IMG/VR virus record: IMGVR_UViG_2516143071_000007
Length of the DNA: 37,657 nt
Strand: one strand, 5' to 3'
From: a virus
Taxonomy: Duplodnaviria; Heunggongvirae; Uroviricota; Caudoviricetes
The position numbers and the translations under genes are program-made. This document shows, piece after piece, positions 1 through 37,657 of the stretch (the first letter of the stretch is position 1; each line of letters begins with the position of its first letter). The notes beneath the pieces are model-generated. The model worked only from the letters and a program-made list of their open reading frames with translations. It was not told the DNA's origin and did not search any database.

Positions 1-60
1 GGTATCCGTTCTGCTGAAGTGTCATGGCGTTGATTTTACGGTGACTCTTCGACAGTGAAA

Positions 61-84
61 AGAAAAAAGGCCGCAGAGCGGCCA
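61..84 (-). terminator. Rho-independent terminator candidate downstream of the 138-aa minus-strand ORF
   Basis: GGCCGC-AGAG-GCGGCC hairpin at 69-83 followed on the minus strand by a T-run (plus-strand AAAAAA 62-68). Confidence 0.55.
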
Positions 85-189
85 TAAACACAAACAAAAA
101 TCAATAAGTTAGATAATTATCAAAGACTTACAGACACACAAAAACACAGCCAACCACAACAAATAACAGGGATGTGGTCACTTTGTGGA

Positions 190-606
190 TCATTCACTCC
201 CCTCTTTTTCCTTATTTCGTTGAACGCCAATTGCAACACACGTACTAAGCAAATCTTTACATTTCTCTACGTCTTCAGACTTACGCAATTTGATGCTTTT
301 TACAGACTGCGGGCTACTGTCCGTAGCACGATACATCGTTATTTCAATATCATTTCGGTCTAAGAGTCCCATAATGGCTTTTGCAACCTCCACACCCTTC
401 TTCGCGAAATCAAAGAATAGAGCAAGTTTATATGGATTTTCGACGGAAAAAACTTCAATTTTGCTAAAACCAACATCGTGTAGAGAAAAATATTGCCCAA
501 CCTCATCTCGAAGTTCTGGATCGCATACAATGTCTATTCTCCAGTACTGACCTAAATGCAAATCGCTATTAACTGTTTTTTCCACAACATCCTCCTTACC
601 CAGCAA
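190..606 (-). CDS. Hypothetical protein, 138 aa, AT-rich cargo gene downstream of int
   Basis: Clean ORF; its ATG (606-604) overlaps the int stop (596-598) by 11 nt, suggesting co-transcription; visibly AT-rich; no motif recognised. Confidence 0.55.
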   Translation of the reverse strand: MLGKEDVVEKTVNSDLHLGQYWRIDIVCDPELRDEVGQYFSLHDVGFSKIEVFSVENPYKLALFFDFAKKGVEVAKAIMGLLDRNDIEITMYRATDSSPQSVKSIKLRKSEDVEKCKDLLSTCVAIGVQRNKEKEGSE

Positions 607-1570
607 TAGGATTAAATCTCACCGCATCCTGCAAGTAATCCGGCGCAAGATGGGCATAAATCATCGTTGTCTGAATCTTTGCGTGCCCCAGAATTTTCTG
701 GAGCGTCAGAATATTGCCGCCGTTCATCATGAAATGACTGGCGAAGGTGTGGCGCAGCGCATGAACAGCCTGACCGTCAGGAACATCAGATGCGACCGTT
801 TTGATGACATCGCGAACCAATGGATAATCCAGCGTCGGAAACACCAGTTTCCCGCCCCGTTTTTTGATCTTTTCAAACAGGCTTTCAGAAATAGGAACGG
901 TACGGTTTTTGCTGTTCTTCGTTTTTGAAAAAGTGATTCGACAATGAAGAACACGGCGCTGCTCCAGTACCGCTACCTCGCCCCATCGCGCCCCGGTCGA
1001 CAGAAGGATTTCGACAGCCAGCCGTTCATCGGGATTTTCAGCCAGTGCATCCAGCAACTGAACACATTCAGACTTACTCAGATATCCCATTTCGCGCTCG
1101 TTAACCTTCATTCCTTTAAGGCCTTGAACGGGGTTATCGTTAAGAAAATGGCCGGATGAGATGAGTGCGGTAAACATCGCGCTTAACGCCCCAATCTCTC
1201 GATTTATGGTGCTGGGCTGTATCCCCTGCTCTATCCTGGACACACGTAGCTCGGTGAGCATTGTTGTATTAAGTTTATGCACGCACGGGTCATCCATTGC
1301 CTCACTCAAGCGCAGCAATTTAAGGCGCGTGTTATGCCCTGACTTCATTAGCTGGCCGTGGTATTTCCACCACAAGTCAATAAGCACTGACAGAGGACGG
1401 CGATCAATAGAGTTTCCTTTCCACTCATTGTTATGCTGTTGCGCCAGCACCCACCGCTCATATAAAACTGCATCCGATTTCGTTTTAAATTTTTTGCGGA
1501 TGCGTTTGCCTTTACGCCCCTCAGGGCGCATGTCAAGAAGATACCCTCCCGGAATTGATTTTATGCTCAT
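596..1570 (-). CDS. int: Tyrosine recombinase, P2-type phage integrase
   Basis: C-terminal HALRHTFASH...IQTTMIYAHL catalytic region; start chosen at internal ATG (MSIKSIPGG, 1570), the ORF-track start at 1720 would overlap the repressor gene; position next to repressor. Confidence 0.9.
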   Translation of the reverse strand: MSIKSIPGGYLLDMRPEGRKGKRIRKKFKTKSDAVLYERWVLAQQHNNEWKGNSIDRRPLSVLIDLWWKYHGQLMKSGHNTRLKLLRLSEAMDDPCVHKLNTTMLTELRVSRIEQGIQPSTINREIGALSAMFTALISSGHFLNDNPVQGLKGMKVNEREMGYLSKSECVQLLDALAENPDERLAVEILLSTGARWGEVAVLEQRRVLHCRITFSKTKNSKNRTVPISESLFEKIKKRGGKLVFPTLDYPLVRDVIKTVASDVPDGQAVHALRHTFASHFMMNGGNILTLQKILGHAKIQTTMIYAHLAPDYLQDAVRFNPIAG

Positions 1571-1619
1571 TCGTGAAACCCCAGCGTTACAAGACCACCA
1601 TGCCCCCAGCGTTCCATGA

Positions 1620-1931
1620 TTAGCCGGGCTGTGTACCAGTCTTGCGGGATTTTTGAGAAGACGATGTGTTTTCTGGCCCATCAGGGGAGAGAGAGGGACT
1701 GATCTGCCCAGCAGCCTCATTTGTTTTTCCCGTCATAAGCCATATAGTGTATTTTTCGAAATCCTTAGAATTAATTACGCGATCAACAACGCTTAAACCA
1801 ACCTCTCTTTTACCGCTCTCATAATTCTTTATAGTTCCGAGATTTATCCCAGTAACATCAGCAAACTCAGCTTGAGTTAACCCTTCACTTTTCCGTATCT
1901 CTTTCAGTTTTTTTTCGTACCCACTTGACAT
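1620..1931 (-). CDS. Immunity repressor, HTH_XRE type (P2 C / 186 CI position)
   Basis: HTH segment LTQAEFADVTGINLGTIKNYESGKR; about 100 aa; upstream of int and divergent from early operon. Confidence 0.8.
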   Translation of the reverse strand: MSSGYEKKLKEIRKSEGLTQAEFADVTGINLGTIKNYESGKREVGLSVVDRVINSKDFEKYTIWLMTGKTNEAAGQISPSLSPDGPENTSSSQKSRKTGTQPG

Positions 1932-1941
1932 GGTGGTCTCC

Positions 1942-35591: not shown

Positions 35592-35780
35592 AAATACCTC
35601 ACAATCTGAATTAGATATCCCAATTTAACGCATTAATAACATAATGTTATGATATCACACAATCAAAATAACGTGCTGATTTTAATGTATCAGGTTTGAC
35701 TAGCTATTCTTTGATAAGCGAATAATAAGAATGTCAGCCCCTCAACTCAAAGCGGTTTAGTCAGTTGGAATCGGAGCTAG

Positions 35781-37018
35781 GGAAGGTGCGAACAAGTTCC
35801 TGATATGAGATCATCATATTCATCCGGAGCGCATCCCAGAGGGGACAGTCATGAGCCATCAACTCACCTTCGCCGATAGTGAATTCAGCACTAAAGCCGC
35901 CAGATCAGACCCGAAAAGAGATTTTCCCTCTCCCGCATGGAGCAGATTCTGCCATGGCAAGAATATGAACCGCTGTCATCGAGCCCGTTTTATCCCAAGG
36001 CGGGCAATGGCCGACGACGGCCCTATCCGCTGGAGAACCATGCTTGGCGTATTCAACTGCATGCAGCATTGGTACAACCTGAGCGACGGTGCCATGGAAG
36101 AATGCCCTGTACGAAATCGCCTCCATGCGCCTGTTTGCCCGATTATCCCTGGATAGCGCCCTGCCGGATCGCACCCACCATCATGAATTTCCGCCACCTG
36201 CTCGAGCAGCAATCAACTGGCCCGTCAATTGTTCAAGACCATCAATCGCTGGCTGGGCCGAAGCAGGCGTCATGATGACCCAAGGCACTTTTGGTGGATG
36301 CCACCATCATTGAGGCACCCAGCTCTACCAAGAACAAAAGAGCAGCAACGCGAATCCGGAGATGCATCAGACCAAGAAAGGCAATCAGTGGCACTTTGGC
36401 ATTGAAGGCCCACATTGGTGTCGATGCCAAGAGTGGCCTGACCCACAGCCTAGTTCACCACCCCGCGGCCAACGAGCATGACCATCAATCAGTTTGGGTA
36501 ATCCTGCCTTCATGGAGAAGGAGCAATTTGTCTCAGCCGATGCCGGCTACCAAGGAGCGGCCACAGGCGCGAGGAGGCTGGCCGAGGTGGGATGTGGACT
36601 TGGCTGATCGGCCGAGCGTCCCCGGCAGGTAAAAACCTTGAAGCAGCATCCGCGCAAGAACAAAACGGCCATCAACATCGCATAACATGAAAGCCAGCAT
36701 CCGTGCCAAGGTAGAGCACCCGTTTCGGCATCATCAAGCGGCAGTTCGGCTTCGTGAAAGCCAGATACAAGGGGCTGCTGAAAAACGATAACCAACTGGC
36801 GATGTTATTCACCCTGGCCAACCTGTTTCGGGTGGACCAAATGATACGTCAGTGGGAGAGATCTTCACTAAAAACTGGGGATAACGCCTTAAATGGCGAA
36901 GAAACGGTCTAAATAGGCTGATTCAAGGCATTTACGGGAAGAAAAAATCGGCATCAAAATGAAGAAATGAAATGACTGAGTCAGCCGAGAAGAATTTCCC
37001 CGCTTATTCGCACCTTCC
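35781..37018 (+). mobile_element. IS5-family insertion sequence, about 1.2 kb, with CTAG target-site duplication
   Basis: Terminal inverted repeats GGAAGGTGCGAA (35781) and TTCGCACCTTCC (ends 37018); CTAG at 35777-35780 and 37019-37022. Confidence 0.85.
35851..36912 (+). pseudogene. IS5 transposase (InsH-like) disrupted by multiple frameshifts
   Basis: InsH-like segments ([106 protein letters not shown]) are spread over at least three reading frames. Confidence 0.8.
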
Positions 37019-37065
37019 CTAGTAGAACTTAAAATAACAGAAGCACCACGTTAAGGGAGGTCTCT

Positions 37066-37326
37066 ATGTTCCGTTGTCCGCTTTGTGGCGCATCTGCCCG
37101 TATCCGCACAAGTCGTCCGGAAAATGATTCAAACACCGTGCGGCAAAAGTATTACCAGTGTAACAACCTGGAATGCGGCGTATGCTTCTCAACACTGGAA
37201 GCCTTCCATAAATTCACATCAAAACACGCCTCCGCCGTTCACTCTTCAGAAGGTATCCCGTGGCATGAGCTGCCAGCTTCACACAGGGGAAACAATCAGA
37301 TGAGTTTGCCTTTACCTCAGAACTAA
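37066..37326 (+). CDS. ogr: Late gene activator, Ogr/Delta zinc-finger family
   Basis: MFRCPLCG..ARIRTSR....YYQCNNLEC four-Cys pattern as in P2 Ogr; AGGGAGG Shine-Dalgarno; C-terminal tail longer than P2 Ogr. Confidence 0.85.
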   Translation: MFRCPLCGASARIRTSRPENDSNTVRQKYYQCNNLECGVCFSTLEAFHKFTSKHASAVHSSEGIPWHELPASHRGNNQMSLPLPQN

Positions 37327-37386
37327 CAGGCAGAATTGCCGGATTAACAAAAAAGCGATAGATTACGCGCGGGTGCCTTTCGGCTG

Positions 37387-37650
37387 ATGGTCGGAGGGAA
37401 TACCCGAAGGCCAGATGTGGAAAGGCCCCGGAAAACATCTCTGTTTAACCGAGGCCCTAACCGCATTACCTTGACAAGTGAAAGGTTAGCGCCTCTCCGG
37501 AAAAGGAGCAAGTGCTATGTCGCAAAAATCGCTTACGGCCATCACGTTCTGCGTGACGGCAATCCTCATCATCTGGATGCTGCACGGTTCACTGTGCGAA
37601 ATACGGATGAGCTTCTGGGGAGCGGAGTTTGCGGCGTTCTTACAGTGTAA
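37387..37650 (+). CDS. Possible mok-like overlapping leader frame for the hok-like gene
   Basis: 87-aa ORF in a different frame covering the hok-like ORF, as in hok/mok loci; no independent support. Confidence 0.25.
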   Translation: MVGGNTRRPDVERPRKTSLFNRGPNRITLTSERLAPLRKRSKCYVAKIAYGHHVLRDGNPHHLDAARFTVRNTDELLGSGVCGVLTV

Positions 37651-37657
37651 GCAGTAA
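37517..37657 (+). CDS. Hok/Gef-family type I toxin, 46 aa
   Basis: N-terminal TM helix then SLCEIR....EFAAFL..K matching the Hok family pattern; AGGAG Shine-Dalgarno; stop at the last 3 nt of the window. Confidence 0.65.
   Translation: MSQKSLTAITFCVTAILIIWMLHGSLCEIRMSFWGAEFAAFLQCKQ

Follow-up and report, generated by a model that had tools for sequence, protein, structure and literature searches.

Partition Genes and a hok-Type Locus on an Integrated P88-like Prophage of Escherichia coli O104:H4

Introduction

The DNA examined here, IMG/VR record IMGVR_UViG_2516143071_000007 (37,657 nucleotides, analysed at full length and hereafter called the window), is an integrated P88-like prophage (Xuanwuvirus, Peduoviridae, P2 family) of Escherichia coli O104:H4, and encodes an actin-like ParM, its adaptor ParR, and a Hok-type toxin. 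An initial annotation of this DNA had described an integrase and immunity switch, an actin-type partition system, and a hok-like killer gene on one P2-type backbone; all four components (the backbone, the integration/immunity region, parMR, and hok) are present.

The presence of these genes on P88-like phages is already known, both as an observation and as a hypothesis. The RefSeq annotation of this prophage includes ParM, ParR, and Hok by name; P88 has been placed among putative phage-plasmids, with “episomal and integrative states” suggested (Pfeifer et al., 2021; PMC7969092), and the phage-plasmid idea has been raised for roughly one in four P2-like phages of E. coli (Rousset et al., 2022; PMC9122126). 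A phiSM gene has been listed as fitness cargo (Magaziner et al., 2019; PMC6456863), and a preprint describes hok as enriched in prophages, with its function there unknown (bioRxiv 10.1101/2025.08.07.668861). The combination of parMR and hok on a P2-type backbone is a known signature of the genus rather than a rare chimera. We add the att sites, a census of chromosomal and plasmid locations, a phage ParM lineage with its synteny, evidence of purifying selection, a candidate centromere, and a junction within parR. Four P88-like backbones served as comparators: P88, PhiR44_2, phiSM, and a plasmid-labelled circular copy.

ParM, ParR, and a Candidate Centromere

The partition genes and their surroundings comprise the following features.

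8242–8356, plus strand: candidate parC/operator, two 42-nt repeats (81% alike), from repeat and pattern searches
8385–9344, plus strand: parM, actin-like segregation ATPase (StbA_N, 2.9e-82; ParM C-domain, 5.6e-68)
9349–9663, plus strand: parR, ribbon-helix-helix adaptor, directly 3′ of parM (Plasmid_stab_B, 3.8e-25)
9683–10434, plus strand: gpA-gpQ hotspot cargo, two open reading frames (ORFs; 9683–10114 and 10116–10379) matching PHROGs of unknown function

ParM aligns over its full length with the structure of R1 ParM (1mwk; E 3e-92, 46% identity over 315 residues) and retains all of the nucleotide-binding motifs of the R1 protein (DDGSTN, PESIPAG, DLGGTTLD, and GGG). Within E. coli and close relatives the dN/dS of parM is 0.02–0.12. 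The match of ParR to pB171 ParR (2jd3) is weak (E 0.005); among nine ParR orthologues the N-terminal strand (RRISFYLKP in the E. coli group) and the C-terminal N-x4-FP tail are invariant, and the middle is variable. ParR proteins generally possess a DNA-reading strand and a ParM-binding tail, a layout that the invariant ends of the phage orthologues fit. Judged by domains and motifs, ParM and ParR are a full-length R1-type (type II) partition pair, in agreement with the actin-type partition system of the initial annotation. As in R1 parMRC (the parA locus) and pB171 ParMR, the ParM motifs are complete, ParR lies directly 3′ of ParM, and a repeat region lies directly 5′ of parM; unlike R1, the element is chromosomally integrated, and its ParM shares the 46% identity given above.

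Each 42-nt repeat contains a CGGGA-N8-TCCCG palindrome (8258–8277 and 8331–8350, 73 bp apart). The first repeat lies within the 3′ end (the last codons) of gene A, and the pair is located directly upstream of parM. In the relatives from Plesiomonas and Hafnia the region upstream of parM has otherwise diverged, yet at the same place it keeps a pair of GGG-N10-CCC boxes, with spacings of 72 and 73 bp; such a pair is expected by chance 3e-6 to 4e-5 times per locus. No such pair was present in the five plasmid or conjugative-context loci examined. Relatives in Serratia and Enterobacter have instead a long inverted repeat with GGGAAC/GTTCCC ends and a shared GGCAAAAACGGGA box. We propose 8242–8356 as a candidate parC and operator, with the palindromes as putative ParR sites. 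The parC of R1 consists of ten 11-bp direct iterons, and the IncL/M relative has direct T-rich repeats; the candidate in the window differs from both in consisting of two palindromic boxes, the first of them within the 3′ end of the replication gene A. The GGG-N10-CCC hairpins were also considered as terminators and rejected, as no T-run follows them on the plus strand and the terminator scan flags the minus strand only.

Within parR lies a mosaic junction: nucleotide identity to the P88-type allele is ~100% through codon 13 and ~65% thereafter, giving a ParR 52% identical in amino acids to that allele beside a ParM that is 98–99% identical. Across E. coli genomes parR matches fall into several length classes, which suggests that parR exists in multiple alleles next to a parM that hardly varies and upstream boxes that are identical. 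Immediately downstream, 9495–9968 is missing from all four comparators, and 9969–10425 is common only to PhiR44_2.

The hok Locus

At the opposite end of the window, between the late-gene activator ogr and attP, the following features were assigned.

37371–37657, plus strand: hok/mok/sok-type locus
37387–37650, plus strand: mok-like ORF overlapping hok in another frame, from the ORF translation
37517–37657, plus strand: hok (HOK_GEF, 29.9 bits against a cut-off of 22; PHROG 251, 1.3e-22)

The earlier call of a hok-like gene is borne out by the HOK_GEF match, and the gene lies inside the prophage. Hok has 46 residues and contains SLCEIR, a Hok-family motif; its score is under the NCBIfam HokA cut-off (34 versus 89 bits). 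The mRNA leader starts at ~37371 and matches, in a search run at a permissive E-value threshold, the Rfam sok model RF01794 over the full model length at 48.4 bits (E 1.1e-9), under the gathering score of 59, and an Rfam scan at the gathering threshold returned no hok/sok RNA. Folding of the full-length hok mRNA predicts a closure in which the first 15 nt pair with a segment ~340 nt downstream, just past hok; this closure appears in the minimum free energy and centroid folds, and the fold has a z of −6.1 (0/100 shuffles as stable). The 3′ fold-back element and a terminator lie ~120 bp beyond the window. A consensus promoter scan around hok/sok on both strands found no site, and so none for an antisense Sok RNA; visual inspection of the minus strand suggests TTGCTC-N17-TAACCT as a possible, weakly matching promoter. 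The locus is 93–97.5% conserved in all four comparators, including P88 and PhiR44_2, which are records of the phage collection. It resembles R1 hok/sok (the parB locus) and the chromosomal hok loci of E. coli in its 46-residue Hok with SLCEIR, mok-like frame, sub-threshold leader match, and predicted closure, and differs from R1 hok/sok in lying between ogr and attP of a phage and in scoring under the Rfam gathering and NCBIfam HokA cut-offs.

Maintenance of the prophage is not the only role that such genes could have. hok/sok might act in abortive infection against other phages and ParR/parC in incompatibility towards plasmids or phages whose centromeres are related, neither of them maintaining the prophage; the enrichment of hok in prophages, for which a defence role has been discussed (bioRxiv 10.1101/2025.08.07.668861), the richness of P2 hotspots in anti-phage systems (PMC9122126), and the diversity of ParR alleles beside a nearly invariant ParM would all suit these conflict functions. 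However, PADLOC models match no cargo protein, nor ParM, ParR, or Hok; in the same preprint, hok genes were not enriched in the neighbourhood of defence systems; the candidate parC boxes do not vary between ParR alleles; and an ATPase kept intact by purifying selection would not be required for incompatibility. We therefore consider roles confined to conflict to be quite improbable.

Integration Site and Chromosomal Census

Set against the empty btuC-ihfA site of K-12 and the right junction in O104:H4, the window shows an insertion in the ihfA terminator, between btuC and ihfA, and both attachment cores are defined.

57–83, no strand assigned: attL core, ihfA terminator sequence GAAAAGAAAAAAGGCCGCAGAGCGGCC
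37916–37941 in window-equivalent numbering, 259–284 bp past the window end: attR core, phage-derived copy GAAAGAAAAAAGGCCGCTAAGCGGCC

The att repeat is imperfect and 26–27 bp long. At least 15 E. coli O104:H4-type chromosomes match the first 12 kb of the window at 100%, and one 100%-identical record (NZ_CP027394.1, E. coli O104:H4) supplied the RefSeq annotation used for the window. On that record the window starts one base after the btuC start, so that the left chromosomal flank within the window is the first ~56 bases only, and it ends exactly at the hok stop codon, with ihfA ~300 bp further on; attR and the 3′ end of the hok mRNA lie outside. Chromosomal flanks with attL and attR are thus present on both sides, and hok is inside the prophage they enclose; the initial annotation had held that such flanks, the lack of an episomal form, and a hok mapping outside the prophage would together refute its reading of the element. 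The flanks are as it specified, and the attP search below points the same way, but the position of hok does not.

P88-like phages match 53–73% of the first 12 kb of the window at 93–96% nucleotide identity, and the backbone is colinear with that of all four comparators. The annotation of NZ_CP027394.1 includes the P2-type portal, terminase, gpO/N/M, lysis, baseplate, tail fibre, sheath/tube, tape measure, gpD, and ogr, and membership of Xuanwuvirus follows from this P2-type gene order together with the high nucleotide identity to P88. P88, PhiR44_2, and phiSM (a Citrobacter phage) share with the window a backbone at 93–96% nucleotide identity, the arrangement gpA-parM-parR with a ParM 98–99.7% identical, and the order ogr-hok. 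The window differs from them in its att/int/immunity module (1–2336) and its parR allele (52% amino acid identity), and has in addition the insertion at 18603–20600, the acetyltransferase gene at 26759–27364, a DUF3800 island, and an IS5-family insertion.

At ≥90% nucleotide identity, the parMR module is carried by 1304 of 5426 complete E. coli genomes (24%, which matches the figure of Rousset et al.), in 1442 chromosomal places as against 2 plasmid places; the chromosomal prophages that bear it include those of O104:H4, O157:H7, and UTI89. For the O104-type phage, the joined attP sequence was rebuilt and used as a query against complete genomes. Att arms of the window's type occur in 329 of them, none of which has the joined attP, and none was found on a plasmid. 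Among the 72,556 records of PLSDB, seven carry the module at >95% identity, namely prophages embedded in records of very large size, a single linear fragment of a prophage, and a single circle of phage size. A match labelled as a Shigella boydii “plasmid” was considered as an episome and discarded, being a linear, IS1-riddled prophage fragment.

These counts bear on whether the phage has a dual lifestyle, in which lysogeny is achieved either by integration or as a stable, partitioned plasmid, and the modules serve as they do in R1. Of the marks of a phage-plasmid, partition and addiction genes are found on a complete phage genome, whereas the lysogen contains an integrated copy bounded by attL and attR rather than an autonomous replicon. 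A complete-looking partition system paired with a post-segregational killer would be expected of such an element, which has, as noted, already been proposed (Pfeifer et al., 2021, PMC7969092; Rousset et al., 2022, PMC9122126), and the circular record pZ1323PEC0009-2 carries int, parMR, and hok while the same phage is integrated elsewhere at 100% identity. This record may be a plasmid state or assembled induced DNA, and spontaneous induction can also yield a circular contig. Against a stable plasmid stand the 1442 chromosomal and 2 plasmid places, the 7/72,556 PLSDB records of which one is a stand-alone phage-sized circle, and the intact attP in 0/329 genomes. In addition gpA, which lies within the early operon, is the only replication initiator found in the window, and no plasmid-type initiator or origin usable in lysogeny was found, although not every small ORF was scanned; by analogy with P2, the early operon would presumably be silenced by the repressor, and an element relying on gpA would not replicate when repressed. 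We regard a dual-lifestyle phage-plasmid as unlikely. The extrachromosomal lifestyle raised by the initial annotation is possible but weakly supported, with one 34,461-bp circle in its favour and the chromosomal places and absence of joined attP against it, and the phage-plasmid reading is not supported for the copy in the window.

Relatives and Origin of the Phage ParM

ParM proteins 95–99.7% identical to that of the window are encoded in 14/14 P88-like phage records, and elsewhere among 50,697 phage records the only homologue is that of the phage-plasmid D6 (47.5% identity). The best true plasmid match in PLSDB is an IncL/M ParM (66% nucleotide and 52% amino acid identity), with whose ParR the window's ParR shares 33% identity, and PLSDB contains no plasmid with DNA close to parMR besides embedded prophages. 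In a search of 5.8 billion proteins the E. coli group of ParMs is followed by a gap in identity, after which the next relatives are from Plesiomonas and Hafnia (62%), Serratia (58%), and Enterobacter (54%); all four are encoded in P2-like prophages in the order gpA-parM-parR-(cargo)-portal. Four relatives at 48–52% identity are in plasmid or conjugative contexts, beside Rep3, ParA, or Tra genes. In a neighbour-joining tree, rooted by outgroup (midpoint rooting placed the root within the phage group), the phage-type ParMs group together as 15 tips. A scan of species-representative genomes with ParM returned only three near-identical loci. One ParM, 98% identical, is on a 226-kb contig (NZ_JBQPOM010000071.1) labelled Vagococcus sp., which is most likely enterobacterial contamination of the assembly.

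The initial annotation had suggested that the element might have captured plasmid DNA at its hotspots, making it a chimera with the maintenance genes of IncF plasmids. On this account recently acquired IncF-type DNA would sit in P2 hotspots as neutral or host-serving cargo, and three observations are in keeping with it: P2-like phages have a documented gene-turnover hotspot between gpA and gpQ (PMC9122126), the DNA just 3′ of parR is variable, and parR is itself a mosaic junction. However, ParM is only 46% identical to R1 ParM and 52% identical to that of the nearest PLSDB plasmid, with ParR at 33%; the plasmid-database search that had been envisaged returned the distant IncL/M locus as its only true plasmid match, and close DNA is confined to embedded prophages. 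Furthermore, the module is in the backbone common to all four comparators, its position is conserved across genera with synteny at 54–62% identity, parM has evolved at a dN/dS of 0.02–0.12, and hok is kept in 4/4 P88-like comparators. Recent capture is thus very improbable indeed, and the suggestion of an IncF chimera is not supported. Given the low dN/dS of parM and a hok locus 93–97.5% conserved in the comparators, sequence comparison indicates that ParMR and hok are old lineage traits under selection, not freshly captured plasmid DNA.

A broader proposal is that ParMRC in P2-like phages is an old, phage-adapted segregation machine rather than a borrowed plasmid kit, and that it acts on monomeric phage circles in a short non-integrated phase, such that the phage would pass to both daughters of an infected or partly induced cell. 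The phage adaptation would be reflected in a clade of its own, a fixed position beside gene A across several enterobacterial genera, and a compact centromere of two palindromic boxes that extends into the end of gene A. We offer both the proposal and its phage-adapted part tentatively, and would put the odds somewhat below even. If ParMRC is phage-adapted in this way, active partition would help a strictly integrating temperate phage to establish and keep lysogeny.

Proposed Role of the Two Modules

The first plus-strand terminator-like site predicted after gpA is at 10414–10434, and the terminator scan predicted none between gene A and 10414; parMR is therefore probably co-transcribed with gpA. 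The location of the first candidate parC box inside gene A likewise speaks for a coupling to replication. The reading that we favour, at a probability of roughly 0.45, is that ParMRC and hok/sok stabilise a transient episome, i.e. the excised or incoming circular phase of the phage. In this scheme infection or induction would switch on the early replication operon, and parMR would probably be transcribed as part of it. P2-type replication yields monomeric circular phage DNA, and ParR would bind the two GGG-N10-CCC boxes on these monomeric circles. ParM filaments would then push the circles apart, such that both daughter cells could keep a copy while the phage is non-integrated, either before integration or after excision without lysis, and hok/sok would kill cells that lose the element. 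The two modules would be insurance for a transient episome, and not the kit of a stably plasmid-borne prophage.

There is a precedent for such a role in srpMRC of the SXT/R391 elements, which is likewise a type II actin-type partition system on a normally integrated element with a toxin-antitoxin system, and which lowers the loss of the transient excised, rolling-circle-replicating form of R391 (PMC4489591). In these elements srpMRC, rolling-circle replication, and the toxin-antitoxin system jointly guard the excised form against loss. In contrast to the prophage, SXT/R391 is a conjugative element, the Srp proteins are distant from R1 ParMR, and the function is experimental there and inferred here. 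If ParMRC and hok/sok do stabilise a transient phage circle, the principle that integrated elements need plasmid-style inheritance would extend from SXT/R391 to tailed phages. If the partition module instead supports a true plasmid state, P2-like phages would have to be counted among the phage-plasmids, with a bearing on the spread of defence and virulence cargo.

Several points weigh against a role in a transient episome. A search of the literature library available returned no experimental test of a P88-like ParMR system. The circular record pZ1323PEC0009-2 (NZ_CP148288.1; 34,461 bp) is a complete P88-like genome that includes int, parMR, and hok. It comes from a strain outside the E. coli genome collection used here; a second strain of that project carries the phage, at 100% identity, in integrated form. 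The census argues only against stable plasmid carriage, because complete-genome assemblies, which miss low-abundance or transient episomes, would not show a transient one. The phage ParM clade is supported by only 49/100 bootstraps, and two proteins at 54–57% identity fall outside it. The assignment of parC draws on position and conservation only, and its two-box layout differs from the R1 architecture. The consensus promoter scan found no site upstream of parM; were ParR to autoregulate a promoter of its own that is active in lysogens, the argument from expression timing would fail.

In the replication operon parMR comes last, following gpA immediately and without an intervening terminator-like site, as would be expected if ParMR positioned or spread replicating circles for efficient replication and packaging and had no part in inheritance. 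The deeply conserved synteny with gpA fits such a lytic-cycle organiser, as does AlpAC/alpS of the Corynebacterium glutamicum prophage CGP3. There too an integrated prophage encodes an actin-like protein and an adaptor that binds 5′ of its own operon; Early after excision AlpAC is switched on, and its target is circular CGP3 DNA, which is replicated efficiently only when both proteins are present (PMC4446434). This action on circular prophage DNA is also a precedent for the transient-episome reading. AlpAC nevertheless belongs to another actin-like family in a Gram-positive host, promotes replication rather than inheritance, and has no reported hok-type locus. P2, 186, and the other non-P88-like records except D6 are without ParM, implying that ParM is dispensable for P2-type replication; the co-conserved hok/sok fits inheritance better; and the phage ParM is closely related in structure to plasmid ParMs that segregate. 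A purely lytic function thus appears rather improbable, and stabilisation of a transient episome remains the reading we prefer.

Integration, Immunity, and Early Region

The left end of the window has the layout of a P2-type integration and early region.

190–585, minus strand: cargo ORF between attL and int, matching PHROG 14142, a family of unknown function (RefSeq hypothetical protein)
596–1570, minus strand: tyrosine integrase (Int_N, 1.5e-28; Phage_integrase, 5.3e-20)
1620–1931, minus strand: immunity repressor in the C/CI position, divergent from the early operon (HTH_3, 2e-10)
2023–2301, plus strand: first early gene, putatively in the Cox/Apl position, from its location (RefSeq “DNA-binding protein”)
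5468–8308, plus strand: gpA-type replication endonuclease, rolling-circle initiator (Phage_GPA, 3.1e-130; PHROG 91, “nicking at origin of replication”)

The immunity switch of the initial annotation is supported by this layout and by the HTH_3 repressor, but not by homology of its divergent partner, for which a Pfam search gave no match (2023–2301); the case for a switch is one of architecture rather than homology of both partners. The cargo ORF at 190–585 had no PADLOC match. The module formed by att, int, the repressor, and the first early gene (1–2336) is unlike every record in the phage collection. Because phage matches begin only at 2337, it represents an immunity/integration type that has no sequenced free-phage representative in that collection.

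Further into the early operon, the Rfam models isrK (63.5 bits) and C4 antisense RNA (76.5 bits) both match strongly at 4525–5009, directly 5′ of a gene annotated as “derepression protein”; we take this region, within a P2-type early operon, to resemble the P1 c4/ant immunity module. A 205-residue ORF (4468–5085) overlaps the isrK/C4 RNAs and matches PHROG “transcriptional regulator” families, which may have been built on mis-called ORFs.

Virion Module and Other Cargo

The remainder of the window is occupied by the virion genes, the late-gene activator, and several insertions.

10891–34330, no strand assigned: virion/lysis/tail module, P2-type, portal to gpD (RefSeq annotation; synteny with the four comparators)
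37066–37326, plus strand: ogr late-gene activator (Ogr_Delta, 4.7e-14)

Four copies of TGCACAA(A), at 10438–10470 and 10531–10540, follow the early-operon terminator upstream of the portal gene, where the cos region is expected, and may be binding sites for terminase or another protein.

An IS5-family element (35781–37018) with inverted repeats and a CTAG target duplication is inserted 44 bp before the ogr start codon, and its insertion may uncouple ogr from upstream signals. Relative to other O104:H4 records this copy has ~45 single-base insertions, which look like an assembly error in a repeat. Adjoining it, between gpD and ogr, is a low-GC island (34331–35780; ~0.38–0.39) with a minus-strand gene for a 389-residue DUF3800 protein, which had no PADLOC match; the island is missing from P88, PhiR44_2, phiSM, and the circular record.

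Two cargo insertions interrupt the virion module. The first (18603–20600), between the lysis and tail genes, encodes a 626-residue protein with DUF1737, a SASA-type sialate acetylesterase domain, and DUF6645, and is missing from 4/4 comparators. The second is at 26535–27481. In this area a full-length match to the Rfam model IS009 (26480–26678; 192 bits) lies inside the tail-fibre-assembly gene, and a low-GC (~0.42–0.44) hexapeptide acetyltransferase gene (26759–27364, minus strand) is located just 3′ of that gene, presumably the position at which P2 carries its Z/fun accessory genes.

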